A stretch of DNA of 64,000 nucleotides from NCBI GenBank assembly GCA_964490105.1, contig CAZAZU010000002.1:12751-76750 (forward strand). The letters are read 5' to 3'. A program made the position numbers and the translations under genes. The DNA comes from an uncultured Gammaproteobacteria bacterium (GTDB taxonomy: Bacteria > Patescibacteriota > Microgenomatia > Levybacterales > UBA12049). How positions within the stretch are numbered: position 1 is the stretch's first letter; every line of letters begins with the position of its first letter. Shown one piece after another: positions 6,584 to 42,858 of this stretch. Under the pieces are notes generated by a model. It saw only the letters and a list, made by a program, of their open reading frames with translations. It had not been told where the DNA came from and searched no databases.

Positions 6584-6615
6584 TACTAATCTCAATGTAT
6601 AAAATGCAGGCTCAA

Positions 6616-12715: not shown

Positions 12716-13800
12716 TTTAATCCTCCGATTACTTTAACTCTATTTAATAATTCTTCGTCTTCGAGAACTTTTCCTGTCCCTCTAACTACTGTCGTAAGCG
12801 GATCTTCTGATCGGATAACTGGTATATGGGTTCTGTCTACTATTAATTTATCCAGTCCGTAAAGCATTGAACCTCCGCCTGTAAGTAAAATTCCATTTTC
12901 CAAAATGTCAGCAGTAAGTTCAGGAGGCGCTTCTTCCAAAACATCAGCCACAGATTCAACTATTTTTGAAATAATAGGAGCAAGTGCTTCTCTTACTTCC
13001 ACCTCTGTAACTCGCAAGCTTTTTGGAAGACCGGTTTCCAAATCTCTACCCCTAACGATAGCAGCTTTTTCTTCATCTTTTTCTTTCTCCTCATCGTCTT
13101 TCTTTTTTTTCTTTGGTCTTTCGTATGCACTACCTAATTTTATCTTTAACTCCTCAACTGTTCTTTCTCCAAGCAAAAGTCCATGCCTTAAACGAATATA
13201 ATGAGTAATTGCTGCGTCCATATCATCACCTGCAGTTTTGAGAGATCTAGAAACCACAATTCCTCCAAGTGAAATTACTGCAATTTCAGTTGTTCCTCCG
13301 CCAATATCTACTACCATCTTTCCAGTCGGCGCAAAAACAGAAATCCCTTCTCCGATAGCTGCCGCCATTGGCTCCTCAATAAGAAAAGCCTCCCTAGCTC
13401 CAGCAGAAAGCGCTGCTTCCCAAACAGCCCGGCGCTGAACTTCAGTTACAGCAGATGGAATCCCTATAACGACACGCGGACGGGAAATTGCTAGAGGTAG
13501 CGAACTCCCTGAACTATGAACATCATGAACAAAACGACTAACCATAGCGCTTGTCGCGTCGAAATCTGAAATTACTCCGCTTCTTAAAGGCTTTACCGTA
13601 ACAATAAGCTCTGGTGTTTTCCCAAGCATTTTTTTTGCTTCACTTCCAAGTGCTATTAATTTTTTTGTTTTTTTGTGAATTGCGATAATTGAAGGCTCTC
13701 TAATTACAATTCCTTTTCCTCTTACCCAAACGAGCGTGTTTGCAGTTCCTAAATCTATTCCAATATCATGGCTAAATAAACTAAAAAGGTTTCTAAACAT
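12712..13800 (-). CDS. mreB: rod shape-determining protein MreB (copy 1, with K/E-rich insertion)
   Basis: IGIDLGTANTLVW phosphate-1 motif and DIGGGTTEIAVISL phosphate-2 motif. ~35-aa low-complexity insert ERPKKKKKDDEEKEKDEEKAAIVRG. Start placed at the internal Met (MFRNLFSLF). Confidence 0.85.
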   Translation of the reverse strand: MFRNLFSLFSHDIGIDLGTANTLVWVRGKGIVIREPSIIAIHKKTKKLIALGSEAKKMLGKTPELIVTVKPLRSGVISDFDATSAMVSRFVHDVHSSGSSLPLAISRPRVVIGIPSAVTEVQRRAVWEAALSAGAREAFLIEEPMAAAIGEGISVFAPTGKMVVDIGGGTTEIAVISLGGIVVSRSLKTAGDDMDAAITHYIRLRHGLLLGERTVEELKIKLGSAYERPKKKKKDDEEKEKDEEKAAIVRGRDLETGLPKSLRVTEVEVREALAPIISKIVESVADVLEEAPPELTADILENGILLTGGGSMLYGLDKLIVDRTHIPVIRSEDPLTTVVRGTGKVLEDEELLNRVKVIGGLK

Positions 13801-13906
13801 AAAAAAACAACTCTCAGCGTGTGTGAGGATTGAAATCCATTCTAGCACCTTGAGGTTATTTTGCAATAACTTACGCGCAATAAATTTAATATTGTTTCCA
13901 GTAAAA

Positions 13907-16261
13907 ATGCCTGATACAATTGTGTTTGTGAAATTTGTAGGCTACGCAACACGCGGAATTGAATTTTTATTTTACTCTCTTTTTCTACTCATCCCGCTAG
14001 TTTTCGCAGGTAACACTTCAGAGCTTTTTGAATTTTCTAAAATGTGGCTCACTTTCGGAATTGCAATTACCATTGGTTTTTTATGGTTTTCAAAAATGAT
14101 CCTTCTAAAAAAATTTATCTTCAAAAGAACTATTTTTGATATCCCGATATTCTTAATTCTTTTTTCTCACTTAGTTTCAACCTTAATTTCTCTAGATCCT
14201 CATATTTCACTCTGGGGATATTACTCCCGCTGGAACGGCGGACTACTATCAATGCTCACATATGCATTTCTGTTCTGGGCCTTTGTAAGTAATTTTAATC
14301 ACGACTCGACAGAAAACCCCACTACAAATCATCTGTCTAGGAAAAGTTTTTTTGATATTCGTCCAGATGCTTTAAGAGTAATCCAAAATTCATTTTTAGT
14401 AAGTCTGATATCTGGATTTATAGTCGTTCTCTGGGCAATTCCTTCACATTTTGGTTATGACCCTACATGCTATGTATTCAGAGGAACACTCGACACAACT
14501 TGCTGGACTGCAGATTTCCAGCCTACTGTCAGAATATTTGGACCACTCGGTCAGCCGGCTTGGCTCGCAGCATACTTAGGCATCTTAATCCCAATTGCCG
14601 GAGCTTTTGCATTGAAAGAACTTAGAAAAACAAAGGAAAAGCTAAACCCGAAATTTCTTGCTTACTCAGGACTATTTATACTATTTTATATAGCCCTTCT
14701 TTATTCAGGGTCCAGAGGAGGAATAATAGGTGTTTTCATTTCGCTTCTATCCATGACAATTTCTTATCTTTACTTTAACAGGCACGATCTAAGTTTCTTA
14801 AAAAATAAATTAATTCCAATTTTTATAGCTTCCATTATAATCGTAACGCCATTCGCAGGAATTGATTTGCCAAATGGAACTAAAGTTACATATGATGTTT
14901 TACTTAAGCAATTTAAAAAAGACGCACCGCCCCCACCCATAACACCCGGACAAACACCTACAACATCTGCAGCTGCAACCGAAGAGACTCCAAATCCTGC
15001 AATTCCACTAGGAGGATCTTCATCAGCTGAGATTCGATCAATTGTTTGGAAAGGCGGAATTGCAGCGTGGAAAGCAAATCCTATTTTCGGGACAGGAGTT
15101 GAAACTTATGCTTTTGCATACTACAAACATAGGCCTGAAGAACATAACAGAGTGTCTGAATGGAACTTCTTATATAACAAAGCTCATAACGAATACATCA
15201 ACTATCTAGTTACTACTGGAGCTTTCGGATTCCTTTCTTATGCTGCTTTCATTGGTCTTTTCTTTATCGCATCTGGACTTAGCTTATTAAATATAAAAGT
15301 AAGAACAATTCCATATTTAGGAAATTTTTCATCTAGCGTTAAGTGGGATCACAAGGATCCGATCGTACTCGCGCTTATCGCCTCTATTATTTCCATGCTA
15401 ATCGTAAACTTTTTCGGTTTTTCAGTCGTAATTACAAATATTTATTTATTCTTAATACCGGCATTTATTCTATTTCTTTTGAAACTAGTTCCAGATTTTA
15501 AAGAACCTCCTCTTCCTAAAATCCCATATGTCTCTTACTCTCAGTGGAGTGCAGTAATAGGACTTGGTGCACTAGCTACATTTTTAATTTTTATGCTTGT
15601 CAGATTCTGGGTGGCTGACACCAAATATGCATTAGGCTTTAACTATAATCAGGCTGGGGATTTTCAAACGGCGTATCCCTTACTGCAATCTGCGATAAAA
15701 ATGAGAAAAGAACCTGTTTTCTTAAATGAAATAGCTATAAATGACGCAAATCTTGCAACAAGTCTTGCGACACAAAACGGCAGTGAGTCAGCGCAAATTA
15801 TTCAGCAATTAGCTACAGAATCTCTAACAACTTCTGAAAAATTAATTAAAGACCATCCAAATAATGTAGTCTTCTGGAAAACTAGAGTTAGAGTTCTTTA
15901 TACTCTAGCCCGCCTTGACCCTTCATTTTATCCACAGGCTTTAGCAGCTATTCAGCAAACAGCTCTTCTTGCTCCAACTGATGCAAGTATTCTCTATAAC
16001 TTGGGAGTTTTGTATGGACAAAATGGAGATTCTAAAAAGGCTGTAGAAATTCTGGAGCAAACAGTCAAATATAGACCCCAATATTCTGAAGCCCATTTCG
16101 CGCTTGGTCTTTTCTATCATGACTTAGGTGTTGACCAAAATGGAGCAGTAAAAGATGAAACATATCGCCAAAAAGCGATTGCTGAAATGGATTATATACT
16201 AAAAAATCTTAACCCAAATGATTCTCAAGCTAAAGCCTACTACGACGAATGGCAGAAGTAG
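13907..16261 (+). CDS. O-antigen-ligase (Wzy_C)-like polytopic membrane protein fused to C-terminal TPR repeats
   Basis: Many TM helices. Wzy_C-type loop WKGGIAAWKANPIFGTGVETYAFAY..H.R..EWNFLYNKAHNEYINYLVTTG. C-terminal TPR-like repeats (ILYNLGVLYGQNGDSKKAVEILEQTVKYRPQYSEAHFALGLFY). Start chosen at the Met at 13907 to avoid overlap with mreB. Confidence 0.55.
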   Translation: MPDTIVFVKFVGYATRGIEFLFYSLFLLIPLVFAGNTSELFEFSKMWLTFGIAITIGFLWFSKMILLKKFIFKRTIFDIPIFLILFSHLVSTLISLDPHISLWGYYSRWNGGLLSMLTYAFLFWAFVSNFNHDSTENPTTNHLSRKSFFDIRPDALRVIQNSFLVSLISGFIVVLWAIPSHFGYDPTCYVFRGTLDTTCWTADFQPTVRIFGPLGQPAWLAAYLGILIPIAGAFALKELRKTKEKLNPKFLAYSGLFILFYIALLYSGSRGGIIGVFISLLSMTISYLYFNRHDLSFLKNKLIPIFIASIIIVTPFAGIDLPNGTKVTYDVLLKQFKKDAPPPPITPGQTPTTSAAATEETPNPAIPLGGSSSAEIRSIVWKGGIAAWKANPIFGTGVETYAFAYYKHRPEEHNRVSEWNFLYNKAHNEYINYLVTTGAFGFLSYAAFIGLFFIASGLSLLNIKVRTIPYLGNFSSSVKWDHKDPIVLALIASIISMLIVNFFGFSVVITNIYLFLIPAFILFLLKLVPDFKEPPLPKIPYVSYSQWSAVIGLGALATFLIFMLVRFWVADTKYALGFNYNQAGDFQTAYPLLQSAIKMRKEPVFLNEIAINDANLATSLATQNGSESAQIIQQLATESLTTSEKLIKDHPNNVVFWKTRVRVLYTLARLDPSFYPQALAAIQQTALLAPTDASILYNLGVLYGQNGDSKKAVEILEQTVKYRPQYSEAHFALGLFYHDLGVDQNGAVKDETYRQKAIAEMDYILKNLNPNDSQAKAYYDEWQK

Positions 16262-19385: not shown

Positions 19386-21827
19386 TTAGTAACTATATTT
19401 TAGCGTACCGCTTTCAGATCTTAGTTTCAAGAGATACATTCCGCTCCTTTCTTCCCTTAAAATCTGCCTATTATTTTTATCGTAAGTATAAATCTTTGTT
19501 TTATTTGTTAATGCCGAATAAACAATTCCTATTAAATTTTTATCTTTCATGAAAAATATTTCCGTAAGACTGTTAAGTTTTTTAGTTTTCGAATCATAAA
19601 CTGGCGCGACAATTAAATTATTTTTTTCTGGGTAAATATGAGGGCCATTGTTATATCTGAATGATGTAATATTTATCCAGGAAAGCGGATTACTCGAATA
19701 ATTTTTATACTGAAAAGTAAGGGTATTCCCCGCTTTGTCGGAAACGGTAGCTATTTTCCCACCAACTGAATCAGATTTAGTAACTGATGCTGATTCGGAT
19801 CCGTCTTTTCCATAAAATTCTATGGCTTTAGAATTTAAGAAATATTCTATCTCCACTTCAGGCGAAGTTTTGTCTATATAAAACGAAATGATTTTAGGAT
19901 CCTCAACATTCTCATCATTATCTACCGAATAAAATTCTAATTTATGCTTACCGGATGCCGAGAACTCTATTGGAGAGACATACTTTTCCCAATCTCCATC
20001 TTCTCTTCTATATAAAATATAATTTACTCCTAATCCATTTGTATTATCACTAGCAACTAGACTTACTAATGCGTTAGACCTGTAAAATCCTTCATTTCCC
20101 ATTACCCCGAAAATAAACGCTGAGGTTGTGGCAGGAGCTATATCTTTTCTTTCTGCTACCAATGCAAATTGAGTGAGATGATTTGCTGCGGTTGTTGCTT
20201 TTTTATTTTCTAAATCTACTGCGGTATCTTCTTTTACCCAATCAATTCCATCGGATGTTGAATAAATAGATAGAGTTCCTACGACAATTTTAGAAAGATC
20301 TAGATCAGAAAAATCCATGGTTAGTGAAAATGGCTTGTTAAAATTTGTAACCTCATTTCCCAAAGCATCTTCCGTGGTTACTTCGACTGTGGGACCGATT
20401 GATCTGAGTAAATCGGAAATCCTTTGTATGGGTGTGGAAATTAATTTAAGAATTAAACTTTTATCAGTAGCCCCTTCTGGAAAATTCACTGAATTTCTCC
20501 CGCTTACAAAAAAACCTCCATTAGAATCTAAAGTGGTATCAAGCCCATCAATTTTTTCTTTCCATAGATAATAGCTTTTATTTCCAGTTCTATTTTGACC
20601 ATTATAAAAGAATGAATAATTTTCCCATGGGTCAGGTGATTTAGACTGCCAACCAAATGGGTCCGTTAATCCATCAGGAATATTATCTTCAAAATTTCCA
20701 TCATTATTCTTATCCTGGATGACCATTAAGTGAATATGTGCGCCATCTTCTCCTTTAGGTCGCACATTTCCAGTAGCACCTACTTTCCCAATTGGATATC
20801 CCGCACTTACTTGAACTTCCAGATTTGGAATATTTGTAATTAATCCATCTTCTAGAAGATGGTAGTATCTTGTTTGATAACCATTACCATGATCTATGTG
20901 AATTGCATTTCCACACGGACCACAGGTATTAATAAATTTAGCAAATCCTCCTGCAGCGGCAATAACCTCATCCCCGTAATCTGCTTGAGCAAGACTCCCA
21001 TAATCATATCCGTCGTGAGAGGAGTAGGCCTCATCAGTTTTGGCATTTTTATAATTAATTATCTGACCGGGCTCGATCATTCCCACGCTTAACAATGGGT
21101 ACTCGTGGTCAAAAAATGAATTTATTGATAGTGCTGCATCTGTAAACGATAAACCTTTTCCTTTATAATCCCACGGTAATTCTAGGAATGGTTCTGGGGC
21201 TGGCAAAGGTGCGGGACTGGGGGTTACGGAGGGAGAAGGAGTGGGCGTCGGACTTGGATTAATATATTCATAATTAAATGCCACCTCTAGGTTATCAATA
21301 TTCGCTGACCATGCTGATGGTCCCGCTCTATTTATTCTAAAAATAAAATTATTTGATCTGATATTCGATGGGTTCAAACAGCTATTAAAATCTACTCCGC
21401 TTGTTGAGGTAATATTATACTCAGCAATATTTACTCCAACCAAGTTTGTCATTGTCCATTTATCTCCTGGCGTCTGACAATTCAATCCATAAGTTGTCCC
21501 CGCAGAAACACCGACAAACAATCCTATATCAGATTTTCCAGTCACACGAATCCTAACCCCAGTTATTCTCACGTCATTTGGTAATCCAAAATCTCCAAAA
21601 TTCCTAAAATATAAATTAGCGAATGAAAGTCCGGTGGCCCTATCACACGTTAAGCCATCTGTAGTTGAGCAATTTGATAAATTTGTATATGCGGGACTTC
21701 CATCAGTAGTTATAGTGGTAGCACTTCTATAAGGGGTTGTTTCTGCAGATGCTGGTCTAAGAAAACAAAAAAAGAATAACCCAAAGAACAGGCAGAAGAA
21801 AAAGGCCCTGATTGCACTTCTACTCAC
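19386..21827 (-). CDS. secreted M23 (LytM-type) peptidoglycan endopeptidase with large N- and C-terminal accessory domains
   Basis: Signal peptide, PT linker (NPSPTPTPSPSVTPSPAPLPAPEP), M23 motifs HDGYDYG (HxxxD) and GAHIHLMV (HxH), then a ~400-aa C-terminal region. Confidence 0.7.
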   Translation of the reverse strand: MSRSAIRAFFFCLFFGLFFFCFLRPASAETTPYRSATTITTDGSPAYTNLSNCSTTDGLTCDRATGLSFANLYFRNFGDFGLPNDVRITGVRIRVTGKSDIGLFVGVSAGTTYGLNCQTPGDKWTMTNLVGVNIAEYNITSTSGVDFNSCLNPSNIRSNNFIFRINRAGPSAWSANIDNLEVAFNYEYINPSPTPTPSPSVTPSPAPLPAPEPFLELPWDYKGKGLSFTDAALSINSFFDHEYPLLSVGMIEPGQIINYKNAKTDEAYSSHDGYDYGSLAQADYGDEVIAAAGGFAKFINTCGPCGNAIHIDHGNGYQTRYYHLLEDGLITNIPNLEVQVSAGYPIGKVGATGNVRPKGEDGAHIHLMVIQDKNNDGNFEDNIPDGLTDPFGWQSKSPDPWENYSFFYNGQNRTGNKSYYLWKEKIDGLDTTLDSNGGFFVSGRNSVNFPEGATDKSLILKLISTPIQRISDLLRSIGPTVEVTTEDALGNEVTNFNKPFSLTMDFSDLDLSKIVVGTLSIYSTSDGIDWVKEDTAVDLENKKATTAANHLTQFALVAERKDIAPATTSAFIFGVMGNEGFYRSNALVSLVASDNTNGLGVNYILYRREDGDWEKYVSPIEFSASGKHKLEFYSVDNDENVEDPKIISFYIDKTSPEVEIEYFLNSKAIEFYGKDGSESASVTKSDSVGGKIATVSDKAGNTLTFQYKNYSSNPLSWINITSFRYNNGPHIYPEKNNLIVAPVYDSKTKKLNSLTEIFFMKDKNLIGIVYSALTNKTKIYTYDKNNRQILREERSGMYLLKLRSESGTLKYSY

Positions 21828-21976: not shown

Positions 21977-22666
21977 ATGCCAGCTAAAAATGCACTCAAG
22001 AATTATCAAGAGAATAGCTTTTATCATATTTATAACCGCGGTGTTGAAAAAAGAATTATTTTTGAAAATTCTCAGGACTACTTAGTTTTCCTCTCCTATC
22101 TTAAGGAATATCTAACTCCTAAAAATGAAAAAGAATTATGTAATCGACTTTCAGATCCTAAAATCGGATCTATCGAAAGAGATAAGATTATAAAAATTTT
22201 AAATCTTAATAATTTTTCAGATGAGATTAATCTTCTAGCATATTGTCTTATGCCAAATCATTTTCACTTTTTACTAAAACAGAAAAAACAAAATTCTATC
22301 GATAGATTCATGAGATCAATATGCACAAGATACACAATGTATTTCAATAAGAAATACAAAAGAGTTGGCTCACTATATCAGGGTGTATACAAGGCAGTGA
22401 TAATTAAAAAAGAAAATCAATTTCTCCATTTAACTCGATACATCCATCAACAAGCTTTAGCTTTCGATAATCAGATTTTGGATGGCTACAATGGTCAACC
22501 TTGTTCTTATTGGGAATACGTTGAAAAAAGAAGAATCGAATGGATTAAACCCCAGGAAATCTTATCTTATTTTTCTGAAAATAATCCAAAATTATCTTAT
22601 GCAAACTTTGTCAACGAAAAAAATAATTCTGAGATAATGCAAGATTTAATTCTTGAGGAGTATTAA
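21977..22666 (+). mobile_element. Y1/HUH tyrosine transposase (IS200/IS605 TnpA- or RAYT-like)
   Basis: HuH motif LMPNHFHFLL and downstream Tyr in RYIHQQA. 229 aa. Flanked on both sides by the same hairpin sequence. Confidence 0.75.
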
Positions 22667-22949: not shown

Positions 22950-23684
22950 ATGGCTGTACAGCAAGAAACTTTAATGAAACACACACCAGCACATCGTCAA
23001 ACACAAGAAGGCGGTTTACCTAGCCTGCCAAACAGACCTAGAACCCCCCACCTTCCACACTCAAGAGCAATCGCTGTTGGATTAGCTTTAGCAATTGCAG
23101 GAACGGCCGTAGGGGGAATTTTTAGAAAAACTGGTGATACTGTAATAAATGAAATGCCTACAGTCGTAACCCTAGATAATCAACACGAATTCATATTTGA
23201 TGGAAGATTACTTGTAAATCTAAGTATGTCACCTGAAGGCGAAGTAAGAAAAGAACCTACAACTAGAACACAGATTTTAAAAGCTGAATCTATCACTATT
23301 CCTGAGGGAGAAGAATTATATGCAACTGATGATATCGCTGCTCCAGAAGGTGAACAACACAGAGTCACACTATCACCTGTTGATTTATCTGAATCCTATT
23401 TCGTACCAGTAGCTGGAAGAACCTATGGTCAAGACACTAAAGATCACTATGCAGATATGACTGTAAATAGAGATGTAGCTTTAGGATCTGAGCCAATACT
23501 AAAAGATCCATTTGGATCAGTAAATATAAATGGAATAGAAGTCGGAATCTTTTTTAGAGTAAGCAATGCTGATGGAAGCGCTAAACTGGGTCCTAATGAA
23601 AAGCCTGTTTATGTAAAACCAAGTCAAGTAGATGTAGCAATTCCAGAGGCCCAAAATCAAGTACCACAGCCTGTAAATGCTTAA
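22950..23684 (+). CDS. hypothetical membrane-anchored protein (GC-rich)
   Basis: 244 aa. Pro/Arg-rich N-terminus, then a TM helix (AIAVGLALAIAGTAVGGIF). Confidence 0.4.
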   Translation: MAVQQETLMKHTPAHRQTQEGGLPSLPNRPRTPHLPHSRAIAVGLALAIAGTAVGGIFRKTGDTVINEMPTVVTLDNQHEFIFDGRLLVNLSMSPEGEVRKEPTTRTQILKAESITIPEGEELYATDDIAAPEGEQHRVTLSPVDLSESYFVPVAGRTYGQDTKDHYADMTVNRDVALGSEPILKDPFGSVNINGIEVGIFFRVSNADGSAKLGPNEKPVYVKPSQVDVAIPEAQNQVPQPVNA

Positions 23685-23740
23685 TTTACATGCTATAGGC
23701 TTGACAATTGGCCGAAAAGGAGTATAATCGCAAACTGAAT

Positions 23741-24826
23741 ATGACAGAAACACTAAATACATCAATCGGCGCACATCCTAACACTCGTTCAGAGTCGAAT
23801 CAAGCATATTGGAAATCTATCACTAGAAGAGTCGCTACAGGAAAAACAATTGAAATCTCTACTGTGGCACAAACTCCTAAAGTAACTGATACATTTACTC
23901 CCCTTTTCGATCAAGGATCTTTCATGTACAGAGCGGTAGCTCTTGCAGGAAGATTTGCAAAACCGGCATTAGCAACAGGCGGAGCCGCAGCAGGAATAGC
24001 AGGAGCAGCACTTGTAGTTGACTTGGATGGAAAATACGTATCTGCACAAGAGCCATCTACTGCTCCATCAGCTGCGCCATCAATTGAGCCTAAACCATCA
24101 GTAACTCCTGATCCAGAAACAGGACTTTTACCATGCCCTACTCCGACACCTGAACCAGGAGAAACACCAATTCCTGATAGAACTATCCCACCTGACATCG
24201 GAGTTGTTTCAGAAGGAGAGGTTTTATTCGCACAAGGAGCCAATTCAAACGGAGAAACTGTAATAGTTACTCTAGCTCAAGAAGCACCATCAGCTGCTCC
24301 ATCAGCACCAGCAAGCCCAGCTGCATCAGAAGGCCCAAAAACAGCAGTAAATCCAAATTGTGATCCAGTATTAACAGAGGCATATATTAAAGCTGGAAGA
24401 CCTGCAGACAAAGAACCAGTTAAATTTAGTTTTATGGATGAAGCAATAGAAGCCCCAATCAGTATGGGTGAACTAAAAGGAATAATTAAAGCTTTTTATA
24501 CAAAACACCCAGAAGCACTTCAGTATGTAGACGAATACGACACAAAGCTTACTACAAAAACACGAAATAGAATGCTTAAGCAATGCGAAAAAGGATATCC
24601 TGATGATCCGAAAGAACTAATTCAACAAAGCAGGGTATCGAGCTGTGCTGGTCTAATAAACTTTTTATACTATATTGCTGTAGAAAATAAATCCCAAGGA
24701 ATGATGGACTTAGCTCAATCAGTTTACTGGTACGCAGTAGCTAATATTAAAGCCTATGATCCCGCGCGTGCTCTTGAGGAGTTTTTAGGTGGAATTGAAA
24801 TAAGAAATCAAACTATTCAAGGTTAA
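23741..24826 (+). CDS. hypothetical protein with A/P/S-rich linker and Cys-containing C-terminal domain (GC-rich)
   Basis: Start moved to MTETLNT (23741) because the upstream ATG lies inside a TTGACA-16-TATAAT promoter (23709-23736). Linker SAAPSIEPKPSVTPDPETG...PTPTPEPGETP. Confidence 0.4.
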   Translation: MTETLNTSIGAHPNTRSESNQAYWKSITRRVATGKTIEISTVAQTPKVTDTFTPLFDQGSFMYRAVALAGRFAKPALATGGAAAGIAGAALVVDLDGKYVSAQEPSTAPSAAPSIEPKPSVTPDPETGLLPCPTPTPEPGETPIPDRTIPPDIGVVSEGEVLFAQGANSNGETVIVTLAQEAPSAAPSAPASPAASEGPKTAVNPNCDPVLTEAYIKAGRPADKEPVKFSFMDEAIEAPISMGELKGIIKAFYTKHPEALQYVDEYDTKLTTKTRNRMLKQCEKGYPDDPKELIQQSRVSSCAGLINFLYYIAVENKSQGMMDLAQSVYWYAVANIKAYDPARALEEFLGGIEIRNQTIQG

Positions 24827-24880: not shown

Positions 24881-25621
24881 ATGAGCTTTAACTTGCTCAA
24901 TTCTGTTCGTGTAAAATTAATTGCCCTGGTACTAATGATCTTCATTGCTGTAACTATCTTTTTTGGTATTTTCTATTTGAGAAATAGAGAAGAAATACCA
25001 GATGAGCTTACTCTCCTAGACAGAGAGGGAGGAAAAATCTCCTATCTATATCCAAATTACATTAGCCAAGTTAGGGTTGAGGAAAAATTTAAAATCCTGC
25101 ACGATAAAAAACTCACAGAACAGGAAAGATATTCTGCGCTTGATAATCTAGCTTTCTTTTTCGGCTCTGCATATAGTGATACTAATGACGCGAAAATAAG
25201 AAAATATCTAGTCAACTTAGGTAAATATGGAGAAAAAGAATTCCCTGCTCTATTTAAAAAGGGTCCTTTTAACCCTGTGTGTCAAGATCCAAGCTGTGCA
25301 CCTCCGACTCCTGAGGAAATTAAATCAATAATTACTCAAATTAAATCGTCTGATGCTCCAAAAGAAGATATAGAAAGAATAACTAAGGCTCTATCAAATG
25401 CCAGCATGGTGGAAGATGATGCCGAGGATTTTAAATTTTACGCTTATAATCAGGCTTATACTGATATCAAGTCCGTAGCTGATACATCATCCTCTTCAGC
25501 CCTACTTAAAACACACGAAGATCTAGGTATATTTCTCTCAAAAAAATACCCGGAATATTGGGAACTCTACAAAGAAAACGTAAGTGAAGGTATAAAAGAA
25601 AGCTTTCTTGAAAATTTATGA
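24881..25621 (+). CDS. hypothetical membrane-anchored protein
   Basis: 246 aa with an N-terminal TM (LIALVLMIFIAVTIFFGIFYL). 4-nt overlap with the downstream giant gene. Confidence 0.4.
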   Translation: MSFNLLNSVRVKLIALVLMIFIAVTIFFGIFYLRNREEIPDELTLLDREGGKISYLYPNYISQVRVEEKFKILHDKKLTEQERYSALDNLAFFFGSAYSDTNDAKIRKYLVNLGKYGEKEFPALFKKGPFNPVCQDPSCAPPTPEEIKSIITQIKSSDAPKEDIERITKALSNASMVEDDAEDFKFYAYNQAYTDIKSVADTSSSSALLKTHEDLGIFLSKKYPEYWELYKENVSEGIKESFLENL

Positions 25622-28600
25622 AAAAAATATTACTAGCTCTTATAATATTCCTAGCACTATTTGAAATAGCTTCAAAAGTTAACGAAGTGCGTGCACATGG
25701 ACCAAGCAAGACTCTTTATTTTAGAAGATGTAACTATAATCCCGGAGTAAGATGGCAAGTTAGATATCAAGTCATATTTAGTGATAATAGTAAATCAGGA
25801 TATATATATGGAACTACGGGACCCGAATCAGCTCATAACGATTACTACGCGGAAGAAGTATGTAACGGATTCGCAAATAGAACTGGCGCATCTGAACCTC
25901 TCGTTAATACCGGCAGTAATGCAGCTGATCCGCCCCATCCAGGAGGATTTATAAGCAGTAGACTAGGACCGAGACAAGACAGTACAAAAATAGTATGGTC
26001 TACAGCTTGTGTAGATCCCGTAATCGATGCTATTACGGTCTACGAAACATTAGACGGAGGACATTTCATATGGGAATTTGTGGAAGACGTCTCATTTAGA
26101 CGTAATATAAATGGGTGCAATGTGCCAAACAGTGGATGCAGCGGTTTTAACGCAGGAAACTTAATCTCCGCAGTAGAGGGAAAAGGAACAATTAATTTTA
26201 GTGAGACAAGCAAATGCAGTAACAACCCCCCACCTCCAAAATACAAAATCAGCGGACATGTTTTTATAGATAAAAACGAAGATGGAGATAAGGACCCAGG
26301 AGAACCATACTACAACTCAGGAGATAGATCTATAGAAAAATGGGGAGACTATCATGAATATGAGGATGGTGGGTCAAACAACAATGGCTTCTATGAATTC
26401 TTTAATTTACCGGGAAGAGATGATTACGGAATTAAATTTAATGTTCCAAGTGGATATAGATGCACTACAGGAAGCGGATGCAGTCATGGCTGTCAAAGTC
26501 AGGGATGCGGAAATGGAATAACACTAGGACCGAGTAAAACTTATAATTTTGGTATCGCACTTGATCGCGGAGCAATTTCGGGAGTTGTTTATATAGATGA
26601 GTGGAACGGAAATAATCCGCCAAATGGAAAAATTGACGGGAATGATACCCGCCGACGAGATGAACTGGTAAGAATGGATCCCAATGGAGCAAATGAAACA
26701 CGAAGAACTGATAGGGATGGTAGGTATAGATTTGGAGATTTGAATCCGGGATCTGACCATAACATAAGACTTGACGGAATTGAGCCCTGCAGGTTAAATG
26801 TCATGGGCGATAATCCTAAAATAAATGTTAACGCTCCTTCAGGCGGAAATAACGATGTACATTTCAGACTCACCCGAAGGTATTTCGAGATAGTTGGAAA
26901 TATATATAGATATGATGCTGCCGAATGCACACCCACCATTAACACTAACTGTCAGGCATATGGAAGAAGCGTAAAGCTTACCGCTGTCGGAACAGGAAGA
27001 AATGATGATTCAAAAGCAGGAGATGCTCCTGACTATAAAATAACACGAATTCAGGATCAAAACGGGGCTTATTCAGTCAGACTTACAGGTCTTAGAGATG
27101 GAGAAAGTGTAGTTGGAGGAAATGAAAAAGACGTTATTGTTAACTGTGCAAATGCAAGACAGGATTTTTACATTCGTCCAGCTGGGGCTACTGAGTTCGA
27201 TATTTCAGGAACTGTTTATGTAGACTCAAACAACGATGGCGCTCTTCAAAAAGCAACGGATGAGATATATGATGGAGGCGGAACTGTTCAGATCAGAACT
27301 GGAAATAATTCAGCCTCGACTGGAAGAACAGGCCCAGTTAGGAATAATGGAACTTATACCGTAATAGACAATCCTCAGAACACAAATTATACTGTAAGAC
27401 TTCAACAAGGAACTCTAGCCTCAGGCTACACTGTACTAAACAATGATAGACGCATTAGCATGGGAACTGCAGACGTAGCTCAGGTTAACTTTTTAGTTGA
27501 TGCTCCTGCAAATACCTATTCTATCAGGGGTGGAGTTTATATAGATTCTGATAACCCTGAAGGAAAAAAGACTGGATCAGAGCCTTATGTTTCAGCAACC
27601 GGCAGTGAAAGAATAAGAATACAAGGACTCCCTGCAGGAGCAAATTGTCCTCAAAACAGATCTTCATTTGTTAGAGATATTAATAATTTTACAGGAGAAT
27701 TTATCGCAAGCGGAATTCAACCCGGATGCTATAGAGTCGAATTCAACGGACCTTCCGGCAGAGGTGCTAATTGGAGAGTAACTTACCCTTCAGGCATCTC
27801 CCCTTTTACCATTGGACCTATCATAGTAGGACCGAATTGTAATGATGACGCTACAGATCAAGATGGTATCGCTCTTTGCGCTACTGGCGCAGGAGGCGGA
27901 GTTAATGGAAATATCACAAATGTAGATTTTGGAATAAAACAGCAAGATGATAATCCCTGGTACCAATCAGTCGGTGGTGATGTACGCATTGACGAAGATA
28001 ATTACAGGAATATAATTCCGGATGGTAATTCTCCGGTCTGCACAAATTCTACATACCCTTATGTATCTTCTAACTCAATTAGCGGAAATCTAACATCTGG
28101 AGTAGTATTTACAGGAAGTAATCCTAACTTCTCAGATACCGGAAATGATAGATCAAAAGCTTCAAATCGAGGCTGGCTTCTAACAGGAAATGAATTTAGC
28201 CCGTCAAGACCCGGAACTATAAGAACCTCTTATACTTATATGAATAATATTATCGAGAAAGGAAGAATTACTGTTAACCCAATGTTTGGTAATAGCGCTA
28301 CTAAAACATGTATCAATAACTCTGGACCTGACTGTACTTTCAGAGCAAATCTCTTAAATGGAGTCTATAAATCAACAACTTCTGTAACTATCAGAGGAAG
28401 CGGAAATCCCGAAACATATACTTTTCCTGATGGAAGAGATTATGTTTTCTTAATTGAAGATGACCTAAGAATAGAATCTAATATTCAGGTAAATCCAGGC
28501 TCTACCGTAACATTCATAGTCAGCGGAGATATCATCATTAGTCCCGACGTAACTGAACTTGATGGAATTTATTCTGCCGATGGCAGCTTTATTACTCAGG

Positions 28601-29682
28601 GTATCGCAACCGGGGCAAACGACCAACCTCTAAGAATTGAGGGAAATGTGATCGCAAATGCCGGTTTAAATGCTGGGGAAAAGTTTGATCAAAGAAGAGA
28701 CTTGGGAGATGCTCAAAACGTAGATTGTCCAGCTGTAACCATAGTATCCCGCCCCGACTTTATACTAAATGGACCTGAGCTTATCCGATATACTAACTAT
28801 GTCATTCAGGAAATTGCACCTGGAGCAGATAGGAGCAGCCAAGGAGCTGGCGGATTTCTAATAGCTGATACATATACTCCTCCATTTACACCTGTCCCAA
28901 ATACACCTACTCCAAGACCCCCAACTCCTGAGCCAGAGGAGCCAACTAATACTCCCCGCCCTAGCCCAAGACCGTCTCAAGAACCGGAGGAAGATAATTT
29001 TCCTTTTTTTTGTCAATATGGGGCAGTTAATAAAAACGGCTGGGTTCCTGAATCAGACAGACATTCATGGGACTACACTTACGATGGCGGTAAAAGATGT
29101 GATATTTATGGAAGCGGATGCGCCATGACTTCACTTGCAATGATTATGAAATATTTTGGTGACAACATGAACCCGGAAAGCACATCGAGACAGGCTACAA
29201 ACAATAAATACCCTATTAACTTGGGATGTCAGTCTCCTGGAACCTTAACCTCTCAATTAACTAATACTGTAGTACCATGGCTAAGAAACAGGAATTATTC
29301 AGTCCCTGGGGGTGACCGTCCAAATCAAGTTCAATTTACATTCGATAGTCAAGGAGATTACACAGGCAAAATTAACCTTAAAGTATTAAAAGTATATATA
29401 GATCATGGATATTTACTGTTGGGGGGAGCAAAAATTACTATGGCGACAAAACAAGGATTGTCAGAACCTGCTGGGCATGCATTTGTTATAACAGATATAA
29501 ATGTTGAGAACGAGACGATGACAGCTTATGATCCTACTTTCTGTCAAAAAGATTATCCAAATCTTCAGGGAGGCAAAAGAACAATTAGAAATGTGAACAA
29601 AATTGGAGGAAATCCAATAGGCTGTTCTAATGGAGATTGTGGATGGGTGCAAATGTTTGCTATAAAGAAGAAACCTAACTAA
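25618..29682 (+). CDS. giant secreted surface protein with SdrD/CnaB-type Ca-binding repeats and C-terminal C39-like (papain-fold) peptidase domain
   Basis: Signal peptide. At least four repeats of the form G.V(F/Y)(I/V)D.N.(D/N)G..D.GE (HVFIDKNEDGDKDPGE, GVVYIDEWNGNNPPNG, GTVYVDSNNDGALQKA, GGVYIDSDNPEGKKTG). Pro-rich linker TPPFTPVPNTPTPRPPTPEPEEPTNTPRPSPRPSQEPEE. C-terminal GSGCAMTSLAMIMKYFG (C39-type Cys motif) and a later GHAFVITD (His). Confidence 0.65.
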   Translation: MKKILLALIIFLALFEIASKVNEVRAHGPSKTLYFRRCNYNPGVRWQVRYQVIFSDNSKSGYIYGTTGPESAHNDYYAEEVCNGFANRTGASEPLVNTGSNAADPPHPGGFISSRLGPRQDSTKIVWSTACVDPVIDAITVYETLDGGHFIWEFVEDVSFRRNINGCNVPNSGCSGFNAGNLISAVEGKGTINFSETSKCSNNPPPPKYKISGHVFIDKNEDGDKDPGEPYYNSGDRSIEKWGDYHEYEDGGSNNNGFYEFFNLPGRDDYGIKFNVPSGYRCTTGSGCSHGCQSQGCGNGITLGPSKTYNFGIALDRGAISGVVYIDEWNGNNPPNGKIDGNDTRRRDELVRMDPNGANETRRTDRDGRYRFGDLNPGSDHNIRLDGIEPCRLNVMGDNPKINVNAPSGGNNDVHFRLTRRYFEIVGNIYRYDAAECTPTINTNCQAYGRSVKLTAVGTGRNDDSKAGDAPDYKITRIQDQNGAYSVRLTGLRDGESVVGGNEKDVIVNCANARQDFYIRPAGATEFDISGTVYVDSNNDGALQKATDEIYDGGGTVQIRTGNNSASTGRTGPVRNNGTYTVIDNPQNTNYTVRLQQGTLASGYTVLNNDRRISMGTADVAQVNFLVDAPANTYSIRGGVYIDSDNPEGKKTGSEPYVSATGSERIRIQGLPAGANCPQNRSSFVRDINNFTGEFIASGIQPGCYRVEFNGPSGRGANWRVTYPSGISPFTIGPIIVGPNCNDDATDQDGIALCATGAGGGVNGNITNVDFGIKQQDDNPWYQSVGGDVRIDEDNYRNIIPDGNSPVCTNSTYPYVSSNSISGNLTSGVVFTGSNPNFSDTGNDRSKASNRGWLLTGNEFSPSRPGTIRTSYTYMNNIIEKGRITVNPMFGNSATKTCINNSGPDCTFRANLLNGVYKSTTSVTIRGSGNPETYTFPDGRDYVFLIEDDLRIESNIQVNPGSTVTFIVSGDIIISPDVTELDGIYSADGSFITQGIATGANDQPLRIEGNVIANAGLNAGEKFDQRRDLGDAQNVDCPAVTIVSRPDFILNGPELIRYTNYVIQEIAPGADRSSQGAGGFLIADTYTPPFTPVPNTPTPRPPTPEPEEPTNTPRPSPRPSQEPEEDNFPFFCQYGAVNKNGWVPESDRHSWDYTYDGGKRCDIYGSGCAMTSLAMIMKYFGDNMNPESTSRQATNNKYPINLGCQSPGTLTSQLTNTVVPWLRNRNYSVPGGDRPNQVQFTFDSQGDYTGKINLKVLKVYIDHGYLLLGGAKITMATKQGLSEPAGHAFVITDINVENETMTAYDPTFCQKDYPNLQGGKRTIRNVNKIGGNPIGCSNGDCGWVQMFAIKKKPN

Positions 29683-29688
29683 AAATAA

Positions 29689-30111
29689 ATGAATAAACCT
29701 TATTATATTATTGGAACTATTATTACTTTGATTCTAATTATGATCTTTATAGGGTCATGGGCATTCTTAAACTACAGGGAAAGAGTTAATAATGACTCCG
29801 GCTTTACAACACAAAACCAACCCCTGTCAAAAGAGCCTTCCGTAAGCACTGGATCGGACCTTGGAGACTTTTCTCAAAAAGAATTAAATGAAAATAGAGG
29901 CTACAAAGTATCTGAGCTAGCTTCTAAGCTTCCTCAAAACGGGCAAAATTTCTCCCTATCGTATGATTTTGATACTGATGAATTCACTCTCTACATTAAT
30001 CCTGATGCACAAGAACAGGGCAACTCTGAACTTACAGCATTTTTAAAACAAAACCAAATTGACAGCATTTCTTGGCTATATAATCTAAAAAGGGTTAACC
30101 AAAGACCTTAA
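29689..30111 (+). CDS. hypothetical small membrane-anchored protein
   Basis: 140 aa with an N-terminal TM (IIGTIITLILIMIFIGSWAF). Last gene of the same-strand cluster. Confidence 0.35.
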   Translation: MNKPYYIIGTIITLILIMIFIGSWAFLNYRERVNNDSGFTTQNQPLSKEPSVSTGSDLGDFSQKELNENRGYKVSELASKLPQNGQNFSLSYDFDTDEFTLYINPDAQEQGNSELTAFLKQNQIDSISWLYNLKRVNQRP

Positions 30112-30140
30112 GTTAATTTAAACCTCCCTAGTTGACTTTA

Positions 30141-30170
30141 TCCATCACTCAATTTATACTTTTAATTGCT
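30141..30170 (+). promoter_or_regulatory. sigma70-like promoter TTGACT-17-TATACT upstream of a ~240-nt untranslated GC-richer stretch and tRNA-Thr
   Basis: ttgactttatccatcactcaatttatact. Confidence 0.4.
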
Positions 30171-30419: not shown

Positions 30420-30491
30420 GCCGTCTTAGCTCAGTGGTAGAGCAGCTGTTTTGTAAACAGCAGGTCGTGGGTTCAAATCCGACAGACGGCT
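30420..30491 (+). tRNA. tRNA-Thr (anticodon TGT)
   Basis: Cloverleaf folds by hand: acceptor gccgtct/agacggc, D-arm gctc-agtggta-gagc, anticodon stem gctgt/acagc with loop tttgtaa, T-loop ttcaaat. One G-G mismatch in the T-stem. CCA not encoded. Confidence 0.75.
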
Positions 30492-30781
30492 CAGCGTCCA
30501 ATCAAGATTAAATCCGTTCCATCTTTTGCTTTGCAAAAGATTTAACACTATAATCTGATTCTCCTTTCTCAAAATTGCTTTGCAATTTTGAAATCAATTA
30601 GCCCGCTGGCTAATTGAAGAGGAGCGAACGGCGAAAAATCGAAGTCCGCCAGATGGCGGACGAAGATCCGAGACGGAATCGCGACGAGCTGAGTTGGCGG
30701 AGCAGTCAATCGCACCTGACTGTAGATCAGGTGCCCGAAAGGGCTACAGGAGTGCAAATCTCTTACTCAGCACAACACCAA

Positions 30782-30853
30782 GCCGATTTGGCTCAGTGGT
30801 AGAGCAAGTCATTGGTAATGACTAGATCGTGGGTTCGATTCCCACAATCGGCT
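30782..30853 (+). tRNA. tRNA-Thr (anticodon GGT)
   Basis: Acceptor gccgatt/aatcggc, D-arm gctc-agtggta-gagc, anticodon stem agtca/tgact with loop ttggtaa, T-arm gtggg-ttcgatt-cccac. All stems perfect. Confidence 0.85.
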
Positions 30854-30866
30854 CACCTACTCTTTG

Positions 30867-30895
30867 ATTTTAAGCATAATTTTAGTTATAATTGT
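30867..30895 (+). promoter_or_regulatory. sigma70-like promoter TTGATT-17-TATAAT upstream of rpmG
   Basis: ttgattttaagcataattttagttataat, ~10 nt before the rpmG ATG. Confidence 0.4.
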
Positions 30896-30903
30896 AACCT
30901 CAT

Positions 30904-31077
30904 ATGGCAAAAGGTGAACACAGACAGAATTTTGGATTAAAATGCAGCGTTTGCAAGAACGTTAATTACATCACGCAAAGAAATAAAATTAACACTGAAA
31001 GCAAACTTTTACTTAAGAAGTTCTGTAAGAAATGCAGAAAAGTTACAGATCATAAAGAAATCGAAAAACTTAAGTAA
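30904..31077 (+). CDS. rpmG: 50S ribosomal protein L33
   Basis: 57-aa ORF MAKGEHRQNFGLKCSVCKNVNYITQRNKINTESKLLLKKFCKKCRKVTDHKEIEKLK with two C..C pairs and the L33 pattern. Below the 60-aa cut-off of the supplied ORF track. Canonical position before tRNA-Trp and secE. Confidence 0.8.
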   Translation: MAKGEHRQNFGLKCSVCKNVNYITQRNKINTESKLLLKKFCKKCRKVTDHKEIEKLK

Positions 31078-31151
31078 TTCCCCTCTTTTCATTTGATTAA
31101 AGCCCAGTCCCAAAGTATAATAGTGCCAGGGTTTAACCCTGAGCGAAACGA

Positions 31152-31223
31152 AGGGATGTGGTGAAACGGCTATCACAGCAGTCTCCAAAACTGCTTTTCT
31201 CAGTTCGAATCTGAGCATCCCTG
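31152..31223 (+). tRNA. tRNA-Trp (anticodon CCA)
   Basis: Acceptor agggatg/catccct, anticodon stem gcagt/actgc with loop ctccaaa, T-arm tcag-ttcgaat-ctga. Canonical rpmG-tRNATrp-secE neighbourhood. Confidence 0.8.
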
Positions 31224-31272
31224 CACTATTTGATATATTGTAATTTCCAGAGATCGATAGTATTTTAAATTC

Positions 31273-39064: not shown

Positions 39065-40348
39065 ATGGAGCGAATACTTCAGCATAAGCTGATTTTAGTA
39101 ACAATTGCTATTCAGCTTTTCGCTCTACCCTTGGTTCTTTTTGCGGTAAAAGAAAGACAGGAAACTAGAACTCAGGCTTCAGCTTCAACATCATTATCAT
39201 TCTCCCCCACCTCTGCTTCCGATACACCTCATAATGTAAACGTAGGCCAGGAGTTTCCCGTAGATGTAATTGTTATTCCCAGCAATAATTTAATTACACT
39301 TGCAAAATTAGAAATATTATATGATTCTTCGAAATTCTCATTATCAGATACGAATCCAATCGTAATTAATACGACTGCATTTCCTCAAACAATAGAGGGG
39401 CCAGTTTATACTCATGGAAAAATTCAGATAGTAGTATCTACCGGATTTGACTATACGAAAGTAATTCAGGCAGAAACAAAAATTTTAACAATTAATTTAA
39501 AGGCTAATACACCAGTAAGCCAAACCCAATTATCTTTTGGATCAAATAGCGGTCTTTATTCTTTAGGCAGTGGTGATTCAAGTAGTATAAGTGTATTATC
39601 AGCAACAACTCCAATCTATGTTAAAGTAAACGAAGCTCCAACTCCTACATTCACACCTGTTCCTACCAACACTCCAACTCCATCCCCAAAACCCACAATC
39701 ACGCCTACACCAACGATTACTCCAACTCCATCCCCAAAACCGACTTCTACACCAATCCCTACTAATGCTCCGACACCAATTCCAACAATTGGAACTACAA
39801 CTTTATTTTTTGAAGGGCTTAAATTACATGGTTTAGGAAAAGGTGGAGACAGTCCCAATCCAAACAGTAATGGTACTCTAAACCCATTAAGAACCACTAG
39901 GGAATTAACCGTAGAACTATATGATAATTCAAATAACCTTATTAATTCTTCTAAAGGTTATATTAAATACACTGTTCCAACTGAAGGAGTATTTAATGGA
40001 GCCGTAGATTTACCAAACACCATACAGGATGGAGATTATTTCATAACAATCAGAACCCCATACTATTTAGGAAAACGACTCCAAGGATATACAACAGTTG
40101 CAAAAGGCCAATCTGTCACGATTAACAATCAATCCGCAGTTTTGGTGGCAGGAGATATTAATCTCGATAATAAGCTTTCAGTTTTGGATTATGACATAAT
40201 AATGGAGTGCTACAGTGATCTTCAGGCAGCTAAACCTACATGCACAGCTGAGAAAAAATTAGCAGCTGATATTTCTGATGATGGAAAAGTTAACCAGGAT
40301 GACTATAATTTATTTATAAGAGAGCTTTCGATTCAAAAAGGAGAATAA
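39065..40348 (+). CDS. secreted protein with cohesin-like N-terminal domain, PT-rich linker and C-terminal dockerin-like repeat pair
   Basis: Signal/anchor. N-domain [31 protein letters not shown] is cohesin-like. Linker [51 protein letters not shown]-terminal [21 protein letters not shown] and [22 protein letters not shown] match dockerin type-I Ca-binding repeats. Confidence 0.5.
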
Positions 40349-41501: not shown

Positions 41502-42858
41502 AATGAATCCAAATGTTAAAAACCGTTTAATAAAAAAGTATGCAACTCTTGGAATCCTACTTCTAACAATCGCGCTTCCTATAACTCTTTATCAGGTTCG
41601 TCAAAATCAGGATAATCGCTCTAGCGCTGCGGCTGCGGATAAACTTGAGGCTGAAGGAGGACTTTTAAGTGGAAATGCGACCAAGCAAACAGATACATTA
41701 GCTTCAGGTGGAAGTTATGTAAAACTACAAATAAGCAACGCAACTCCCACTCCCGATCCCAGTAAGCCAATTGTTGGTGTAATTCGTTGGGATGCTTGGA
41801 CACCAAATCTTCATCCTACAACAACTACTCAAAATAAATGGATAACAGCTGATTTAGGAAAATGGGGCTATCGTTTACCGTTTTTTGCAAAAAATCTTCC
41901 CAACAATACAAAAGATTCAGAAGTGATAAATGAAGATAGCCAGGAAATTATAGATAAAGAAATTCTATACACATCACAAGCTGGCATAAATTATTGGACT
42001 TTTTTCTGGTTTAATTTCTGGTGGCAGGATAGTAATACAACATGGCGATACAATTACGGCCTAAATAATTATCTAAATAGTCCGTATAAAAATAAGATGA
42101 ATTTTGCTTTAATGCTCGGCTGTTGTGGCCTGCTAGATCATTATCCGACTGACTGGGAACCAAAAGTAGTACCTAAAATTGTGAACCTTGTTAAGCAACC
42201 TACATATCAAAAAGTTTTAAATGGCAGACCTATCATATATGTTTTTGGAGCTTCTCAATTAAGTGGATGGTTCAATTGTGGATACTATGATTATAGATAT
42301 GGTACTTGCGCTGACAAAAGCTATACTAAATCAAAGGTTGCATTAGACTATCTTAGAGCAGAGATTCAGAAAGCAGGACTGCCAAATCCGTATCTAGTAG
42401 CTATGGTTTGGGATCCGGGAAATAAAAATTATACAAGTTCCACTGGGTATGGCTTTGATGCAATAACTTCTTATTCAGGCCATGATGCTAGCGTTAATAC
42501 TTTAACCCAAAAATCATACACAACTCTTTCAGCTGATAATTTGGCTTATCGCGAAAAAGCAAAGGCTTCGGGCAATAAAATTATTCCACCTGTTAACACG
42601 GGATGGGATCGCCGTCCAGATCCTGGTTATAATGGGGTCTGGTACGAAGCTGGAACTCCAATTCAAGTAGGAGCTAATCTTAAAGCTGCTATCGACTGGA
42701 ATAAAGCTAATCCAACGCTTACGGAAACAAATAATGTGTTAATTTATGCATGGAATGAATTTGTTGAGGGCGGTTGGCTTGGCCCTACACTCGAAGATAA
42801 AGGAGCTAGACTAAATGCAATTTCCAATATATTAGGTGGCACACAAATTAAGCCATGA
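41494..42858 (+). CDS. membrane-anchored/secreted hypothetical protein (possible glycoside-hydrolase-like domain) carrying conserved post-TM motif
   Basis: TM LGILLLTIALPITLY, then VRQNQDNRSSAAAADKLEAEGGLLSGNA...ASGGSYV. A Trp/Tyr-rich domain (GVIRWDAWTP...). 8-nt overlap with the upstream gene. Confidence 0.45.
   Translation: MIKMNPNVKNRLIKKYATLGILLLTIALPITLYQVRQNQDNRSSAAAADKLEAEGGLLSGNATKQTDTLASGGSYVKLQISNATPTPDPSKPIVGVIRWDAWTPNLHPTTTTQNKWITADLGKWGYRLPFFAKNLPNNTKDSEVINEDSQEIIDKEILYTSQAGINYWTFFWFNFWWQDSNTTWRYNYGLNNYLNSPYKNKMNFALMLGCCGLLDHYPTDWEPKVVPKIVNLVKQPTYQKVLNGRPIIYVFGASQLSGWFNCGYYDYRYGTCADKSYTKSKVALDYLRAEIQKAGLPNPYLVAMVWDPGNKNYTSSTGYGFDAITSYSGHDASVNTLTQKSYTTLSADNLAYREKAKASGNKIIPPVNTGWDRRPDPGYNGVWYEAGTPIQVGANLKAAIDWNKANPTLTETNNVLIYAWNEFVEGGWLGPTLEDKGARLNAISNILGGTQIKP

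Follow-up and report, generated by a model that had tools for sequence, protein, structure and literature searches.

We analyzed a window of 64,000 nucleotides of contig CAZAZU010000002.1 (positions 12,751 to 76,750 of the forward strand) that carries, at 25618-29682 on the + strand, an open reading frame (ORF) for a protein of 1354 amino acids (aa). The closest named relative of this stalk protein comes from Candidatus Levybacteria, a member of the candidate phyla radiation (CPR; Patescibacteria). The protein starts with a Sec-type signal peptide, continues as a long stalk and a central domain and ends, behind a proline-rich linker, in a head that has the fold and the conserved catalytic residues of a papain-type cysteine peptidase. 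A small gene encoding a membrane-tethered partner follows directly, and in near relatives head and partner are replaced together. We consider it somewhat better than an even bet that the locus encodes a surface-displayed, exchangeable effector, in which the stalk would display the peptidase toward another cell, while the partner would inhibit it at the surface of the producer. The G+C content of the window ranges from 33 to 45% per 2-kb block, and the parts of the stalk gene and of the cassette lie as follows.

25618..25695, + strand: Sec-type signal peptide, residues 1-26 (MKK, a hydrophobic core and VRA before HG; read from the sequence)
25696..26238, + strand: N-terminal domain, residues 27-207, conserved in the homologs P0002-P0006 and P0008
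26239..27951, + strand: five divergent beta-sandwich modules, residues 208-778, forming the SdrD_B-like stalk
27952..28824, + strand: conserved central domain, residues 779-1069, terminating in ...RPDFILNGPE...YVIQEIAPG
28825..28998, + strand: junction and proline-rich linker, residues 1070-1127, holding the left recombination boundary of the cassette
28999..29679, + strand: Peptidase_C39_2-like papain-fold head, residues 1128-1354 (227 aa)
29119-29121, 29476-29478 and 29530-29532, + strand: predicted catalytic codons for Cys1168, His1287 and Asp1305
29689..30111, + strand: partner gene, 140 aa, candidate cognate inhibitor or immunity protein
28900..30150, + strand: variable cassette (linker, head and partner gene), delimited by blastn breakpoints with conserved DNA on either side

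Head and partner are replaced together in near relatives

The homologs P0002-P0006 have residues 1 to ~1090 in common with the window protein, at 62 to 71% identity, and diverge completely beyond this point. P0003-P0005 continue with an HExxH domain (HESGHII) behind a Cys-rich linker. The head of P0002 is a beta-sandwich of the GH115_C/CBM35-like type (32.2 bits), and P0006 is headless, ending five residues past QEIAPG. Conversely, P0007 carries a C39-like head that is 60% identical to that of the window protein on a stalk with just 32% identity.

The locus is syntenic among relatives, with the order L28, M50 peptidase, large M23 protein, three small membrane-protein genes, stalk gene and tRNA cluster. 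Compared to loci L001, L004 and L005, the housekeeping neighbors are 92 to 97% identical, whereas the stalk is only 68 to 71% identical, indicating that the stalk evolves much faster than the surrounding genome. At the DNA level, homology to L001, L004, L005 and L008 is lost at window positions 28829-28934 and is back at 30151-30155, ~40 nt past the partner stop codon, in all four comparisons. The right flank is 97% identical to that of the headless locus L008, where it begins 32 nt past the stop codon of the stalk gene. These breakpoints therefore define a variable cassette of ~28.9-30.15 kb that includes the downstream gene. In relatives, the same slot holds an HExxH head with an unrelated small gene, a carbohydrate-binding-like head alone or nothing. 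In the window and in L001, L004 and L007, the tRNA cluster comes next after the cassette; in L003, a second, headless paralog is found there instead.

The downstream gene changes with the head. The C39-head stalk genes of L003 and L007 (and of L006, a near-identical copy of L007) are followed by partner homologs that are 48 to 53% identical over the domain, and the partners behind C39 heads in the window, L003 and L007 measure 140 to 151 aa. In the HExxH loci L001 and L005, the next gene encodes a membrane protein of 204 to 206 aa; these two proteins are 64% identical to each other and have no similarity to the partner of the window. There is no ORF between the CBM-like head and the tRNA cluster in L004, and none between the headless stalk gene of L008 and the conserved right flank and contig end. 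The homologs are thus common in their N-terminal and stalk parts and different in their C-terminal domain, and the gene directly downstream co-varies with this domain, which is the pattern that characterizes polymorphic toxins.

The pairing of head and partner extends beyond the stalk genes. The stand-alone 259-aa protein P0014 (two loci) and P0016, P0017 and P0021 each have a partner homolog directly downstream, so that such a homolog adjoins the head gene in L003, L007/L006, L010/L011, L012, L013 and L015. Counting the window, the partner is present in 7/7 contexts of the close subfamily for which the downstream sequence is complete. P0015 (L009) stands outside this count, its downstream fragment having the same anchor and linker and being ended by the contig. 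The distant family member P0064 has no partner-like neighbor.

Several further observations were made on the compared loci. The HExxH and C39 heads of P0003-P0005 and P0007 have a Cys-rich linker module (FCAR..NCG..CG.C..TCGG.G..N.CG) in common, which is duplicated in L007 (5700-6000). Since the linker is proline-rich in the window and Cys-rich in these relatives, the linker is swappable as well. In L003, the most distant locus compared, the headless paralog of 730 aa (12514-14706; SdrD_B-like modules and central domain) lies directly after the partner gene. Finally, L007 (CAYQEJ010000005.1) is labeled Gammaproteobacteria and L006 (CAZVXQ010000064.1) Saccharibacteria. Both hold a Levybacteria-type stalk gene and partner, and the neighbors in L007 are 82 to 92% identical to those of the window; these contigs are probably mis-binned.

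The papain-fold head and its partner

An earlier note on this DNA had placed a C39-like domain at the very C-terminal end of this protein, after a proline-rich spacer, and this layout was borne out. Indeed, residues 1070-1127 contain 28% proline, and the head behind them matches Peptidase_C39_2 (PF13529; cut-off, 24 bits) with 25.6 bits when the whole protein is scanned and with 29.9 bits when the domain is scanned alone, the match spanning profile positions 13-142 of 143. The cysteine motif GSGCAMTSLAMIMKYFG (Cys1168) and the downstream histidine of GHAFVITD (His1287), both pointed out in the note, are present. The likeness to C39 holds for Peptidase_C39_2 but not for the bacteriocin-processing family that the note had named, as the true C39 profile (PF03412) gave 12.7 bits, under its cut-off of 22.

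The AlphaFold2 model of the head had a predicted local distance difference test (pLDDT) score of 95.3 and a predicted TM-score (pTM) of 0.92. All top Foldseek matches in the PDB (E ≤ 0.1) were papain-fold proteins, the first being the C39-like peptidase 3erv (E 5.8e-5), with staphopains, a phytochelatin-synthase-like enzyme, cathepsin K and AvrRpt2 among the others. In the model, the Cys is located at the N terminus of a helix, the His on a strand and the Asp directly after the next strand. In an alignment of 56 sequences, His1287 and Asp1305 were invariant, and Cys1168, Gln1133 and several other cysteines were nearly invariant. The anticipated papain fold was thus recovered with an intact Cys/His/Asp triad. 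This contradicts the pseudo-enzyme that the note had offered as an alternative, and we regard the head as a member of the Peptidase_C39_2 family, a papain-fold cysteine peptidase that looks active. Because it lies downstream of a signal peptide and contains six further conserved cysteines besides Cys1168, the head is expected to be extracytoplasmic.

The family emerged only with an exhaustive profile search of 1.84 billion representatives, which gave 117 relatives of the head at E ≤ 1e-3, mostly C-terminal domains in proteins of a few hundred residues (median length, 356); a word-indexed homolog search had retrieved 2 proteins. Scanning genomes with a narrow alignment gave two loci, and searching viral contigs, GenBank phages and plasmids by sequence gave no relative of the head.

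In the partner, a domain of ~85 aa follows a transmembrane helix and a low-complexity linker. In L003 and L007, Lys/Arg-rich segments precede the transmembrane helix, which indicates that the domain lies outside the membrane. Searches of Pfam, the PDB and NCBIfam revealed no relative of the partner, and a metagenome scan returned just the L003 contig again. The most likely role of the partner would be to bind and inhibit the head at the surface of the producer, as an immunity or inhibitor protein. Upstream of P0021, we noticed a lytic-transglycosylase-looking motif (ES...GKFQM), which had no match in Pfam and about which we make no claim.

The stalk, its operon and the flanking genes

Equivalents of the N terminus are present in relatives of the stalk protein, and the cleavage site of the signal peptide is placed by prediction. 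The N-terminal domain (residues 27-207) matched no family in a Pfam scan and is a possible attachment end. In the stalk, the motif G.V(F/Y)(I/V)D, quoted in the earlier note, is found four times (residues 213, 322, 531 and 638), and a degenerate fifth module lies at residue 427. The modules are spaced by ~105 aa, with limits at residues 208-316, 317-421, 422-525, 526-632 and 633-778. Module 1 alone passes the Pfam cut-off for SdrD_B (37.9 versus 29.7 bits). Module 2 is weak (15.9 bits for SdrD_B and 19.3 bits for CarboxypepD_reg), and modules 3 to 5, scanned singly against Pfam, had no match. Since BLASTP relates modules 4 and 5 to module 1 (E 1.5e-5 and 4e-3) and homologs of the protein carry SdrD_B and CarboxypepD_reg matches, a stalk of SdrD_B-like beta-sandwiches is nevertheless a reasonable assignment. 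Of the "SdrD-B/CnaB-type" repeats described in the note, the first half therefore stands for module 1 by profile, the other modules falling below the cut-off, and the second half is not established, as no stalk module matched Cna_B in Pfam. Likewise, the description of the repeats as Ca-binding went too far: only modules 1 and 4 have an intact DxNxDG-type calcium motif, which leaves calcium binding by the stalk unproven. Separately, a CarboxypepD_reg/SdrD_B-like module of the same kind was seen in a PrgI-family protein of L010 (285-1496), within the type IV secretion cluster to which the stand-alone C39-like gene belongs.

The AlphaFold2 model of the central domain was poor (pLDDT, 52; core, 70 to 90), and the only Foldseek matches, to solenoids of ice-binding proteins and to ComZ, were weak (E ≥ 0.06). 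For this reason, we call the domain only a probable beta-solenoid. A word-indexed homolog search with this domain found 3 proteins, and the relative P0130 scored 26.6 bits against DUF7305, just below the cut-off of 27. We treat the conserved end of the central domain as the attachment point of the head. The headless proteins P0008-P0011 and P0129-P0131 finish at, or within two residues of, the sequence ...RPDFILNxPE (8-9 aa) QE(I/V)AP, and the same QE(I/V)AP end is internal in the window protein (28780-28824), with the linker after it. In the headless relatives, this conserved C-terminal end could be a recognition or docking motif. A sequence search of the PDB with the whole stalk protein gave no match, and NCBIfam contained no family for the stalk protein or its neighbors. 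We also considered and rejected an LPXTG adhesin, as the protein lacks this motif and its C terminus is the peptidase domain (last residues, ...AIKKKPN).

The other genes of the operon and its right flank are the following.

22950..23684, + strand: up1, single-pass membrane protein, first gene of the conserved operon, no Pfam family
23708..24826, + strand: up2, conserved member of the operon, membrane protein whose linker is rich in Pro/Ala/Ser and whose C-terminal domain is helical
24881..25621, + strand: up3, N-terminal transmembrane protein, its stop codon overlapping the start of the stalk gene
30420..31224, + strand: tRNA cluster Thr-Tyr-Thr-Trp, conserved right flank of the locus

In relatives with ~95% identical housekeeping proteins, conservation of up1 is confined to its first ~65 residues, the remainder being unrelated, and up1 is possibly a second part of the system that varies. 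The up2 protein is 81 to 83% identical to its counterpart in L001 and matched no significant family. In the intergenic right flank, Rfam found tRNAs alone, and there was no terminator-like site.

To the left of the operon, a Peptidase_M23 protein of 813 aa (19386-21827, - strand) is the neighbor in most Levybacteria loci examined, L003 being the exception. With 59 to 89% identity, its conservation is below that of the housekeeping genes. An IS200-like Y1 transposase ORF (21977-22666, + strand; Y1_Tnp, 46 bits) separates the M23 gene from the operon; this ORF is found at the same place in L008 (93% identity) and in opposite orientation in L004; a Trp-repressor-like ORF takes its place in L001, L003 and L005. 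Farther to the right, within a run of genes on the + strand, the window encodes a protein with cohesin and dockerin (39065-40348) and a right-handed beta-helix/NosD-like protein (42855-44468), which are further candidate components of surface assembly. A protein with a DMFA2_C match (6577-8247, + strand; 359 bits; N,N-dimethylformamidase beta subunit C-terminal domain) is unexpected in a reduced CPR genome.

Possible functions and comparison with known systems

What the head acts on is suggested by the company its family keeps. More distant members are fused to SLT, Amidase_3, Peptidase_M23 and GDSL domains, and P0060 and P0085 combine a HESGHII-type domain with a C39-like domain in a single secreted chain. 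P0014 is encoded right next to PrgI, TraC-like and VirB4-like genes. Some of the phage structural neighbors of the head are annotated as endolysin, lysozyme or phi29-type morphogenesis hydrolase, and Peptidase_C39_2 figures in a list of endolysin catalytic domains for phages infecting Gram-positive bacteria (PMC8223927). Polymorphic toxins, which also include peptidoglycan-directed heads, have Tox-PL-C39 among their listed toxin domains; no immunity family is listed for it (PMC3482391). A C39-like head on a long secreted protein, which had seemed unusual at first, thus has a precedent. Taken as associations, the fusions, the gene and phage neighbors and the endolysin listing favor the peptide moiety of peptidoglycan, or the envelope, as the target of the head. 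The producer encodes a penicillin-binding protein (PBP) transpeptidase, indicating that it makes peptidoglycan and has its own wall to protect.

In the surface-effector model that we favor, a Levybacteria cell would secrete, via Sec, a surface stalk made of the N-terminal domain, five SdrD_B-like modules and the probable beta-solenoid, and the flexible proline-rich linker would carry the exchangeable head. The head would cut the peptidoglycan peptide, or another envelope component, of a neighboring host or competitor cell reached by the stalk, and the membrane-tethered, outward-facing partner would bind and inhibit the head at the producer surface. The contact-delivered protease suggested in the earlier note is therefore still the best reading.

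Several points weigh against this model. The protein has no LPXTG, lipobox or C-terminal anchor that would attach it to the cell, and the TM-scores of the head against solved papain-fold structures are modest (0.42 to 0.45). No orphan head or immunity cassettes were seen adjoining the locus, and the genomes compared are species- or genus-level relatives rather than strains of one species. One alternative head is non-enzymatic and carbohydrate-binding-like and one relative is headless; a general display scaffold would therefore fit as well as a weapon. In addition, one relative that stands alone belongs to a type IV secretion cluster. Wall hydrolases of such clusters normally target the wall of the producer, and in this context the partner could be a regulator or a dock and not an immunity protein.

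This last point leads to the alternative that the system remodels the wall of the producer itself, the head being an autolysin for the assembly of a secretion machine or appendage or for division and the partner a regulator or docking factor. We judge this unlikely. It would account for the position of the stand-alone P0014 directly after PrgI, TraC-like and VirB4-like genes, for the large M23 gene as a conserved neighbor and for the SLT, Amidase_3 and M23 fusions, which recall conjugative wall hydrolases. It would also be in line with a survey of patescibacterial type IV secretion, in which peptidase and lysozyme genes lie downstream of virB4 (PMC12102498). However, the head is placed beyond a stalk of ~1100 aa and a linker of 58 aa, far from the membrane-proximal wall, and in relatives it is swapped for an unrelated enzyme or binding module or is missing altogether, a behavior not expected of a housekeeping function. 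Moreover, the operon and the annotated flanks of the syntenic loci (8 kb on each side) contained no VirB4/VirD4/PrgI-type families.

Less likely again is a role in nutrient scavenging, by which the C39-like and HExxH heads would digest external proteins, the CBM-like head would bind glycans and the partner would act as a staphostatin-like guard inhibitor or folding helper, the whole feeding an auxotrophic CPR cell. Staphostatin is encoded beside the staphopain gene. The secreted protease staphopain is among the structural matches of the head, and the PDB holds a staphopain-staphostatin complex. Two protease-type heads and one CBM-like head use the same slot, and HExxH and C39-like domains are joined in one secreted chain in P0060 and P0085. 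Against this, the fusion partners in the family are peptidoglycan hydrolases and SGNH/GDSL esterase-type domains rather than nutrient-uptake proteins, the phage neighbors are lysis or entry proteins, and the rapid divergence of the stalk and the replacement of the cassette point to conflict and not to metabolism.

Finally, although HlyB-type C39-like domains (3zua and 7sgr), which bind substrate without cleaving it, are among the weaker structural matches, a binding-only pseudo-enzyme or a classical C39 peptidase removing bacteriocin leaders is very improbable, given the conserved Cys, His and Asp, the low PF03412 score, the absence of ABC domains from the stalk protein and its operon, and the extracytoplasmic location expected of the head.

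Beyond the surface-effector model itself, we tentatively raise the possibility of an undescribed apparatus for contact-dependent attack in Levybacteria and perhaps other CPR bacteria. Here, a Sec-secreted stalk would be held by three small membrane proteins and would carry exchangeable wall-degrading heads, every enzymatic one of which would come with an immunity protein of its own, tethered to the membrane and facing outward. In that case, the partner domain of 85 aa would represent a new family of C39_2-peptidase inhibitors, shared with a wall hydrolase of CPR type IV secretion.

Little is known of how ultra-small CPR bacteria attach to other cells, breach them and exploit them, and tractable molecular handles are very few. 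The locus offers a testable pair, namely, a well-folding cysteine peptidase head of 227 aa and a partner domain of 85 aa, and the same combination is met again in several CPR contexts, one of them a stand-alone copy within a type IV secretion cluster. Should the head prove to cleave peptidoglycan and the partner to inhibit the head, the result would be a new effector-immunity pair, a new C39_2 inhibitor family and a new stalk type for contact-dependent delivery. Otherwise, the locus would still illustrate clearly how heads are swapped on a surface protein that evolves fast.

Among known systems, the wall hydrolases in type IV secretion of Gram-positive bacteria, multidomain proteins such as PrgK, TraG of pIP501 and VirB1-like proteins, resemble the family in that its members join SLT, M23 or amidase domains to the peptidase, as SLT is joined with CHAP, and in that one close relative of the head adjoins VirB4-like, PrgI and TraC-like genes. 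Unlike them, the window protein lies outside a type IV cluster and carries its peptidase, which is exchangeable, at the end of a long stalk. With SdrD and other MSCRAMM adhesins, it has in common a Sec signal and tandem SdrD_B-like beta-sandwich modules. However, it has neither LPXTG, nor a Ser-Asp repeat, nor an N-terminal ligand-binding A region, only one module passes the profile, and its functional head is C-terminal and predicted to be enzymatic.

The head itself is similar to Peptidase_C39_2 proteins such as 3erv of Bacillus anthracis and to endolysin domains: it passes the Pfam cut-off, has its best fold match there and displays the GH.(F/V)V...DP signature. It differs from 3erv and its kin by an identity of only 13 to 15% and a TM-score of about 0.42 to 0.47, by an insertion of ~35 residues between the conserved Gln and Cys and by extra conserved cysteines, and from Peptidase_C39_2 at large in that its subfamily is small and has a dedicated partner gene. 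The order of a hydrolase gene followed directly by a gene for a small cognate protein recalls staphopain-staphostatin and the envelope-acting effector-immunity pairs Tae/Tai and TelC/TipC. In these envelope-acting pairs, too, the partner sits on the outer side of the cytoplasmic membrane, at the place of action of the enzyme. In contrast, our partner has no sequence relationship and no detectable fold relationship to staphostatin or to known immunity families.

A close parallel is provided by the Tox-PL-C39 polymorphic toxins (Zhang, Aravind et al. 2012; PMC3482391). They, too, are long secreted proteins with a conserved N-terminal and stalk part and a variable C-terminal domain, have a papain-fold C39-like head with C, H and D and metallopeptidases among the alternative heads, and are followed directly by a gene that changes with the head. 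The differences are that the stalk described here is SdrD_B-like and solenoid-like instead of RHS, filamentous hemagglutinin or WXG, that delivery would depend on Sec only, that the host belongs to the CPR Levybacteria, that no orphan cassettes were seen, that one CBM-like head has no partner and that the candidate immunity protein is membrane-tethered and outward-facing. Overall, the locus is best filed as polymorphic-toxin-like head swapping on a new stalk, in a CPR bacterium, where a new family of partners goes with a small subfamily of C39_2.

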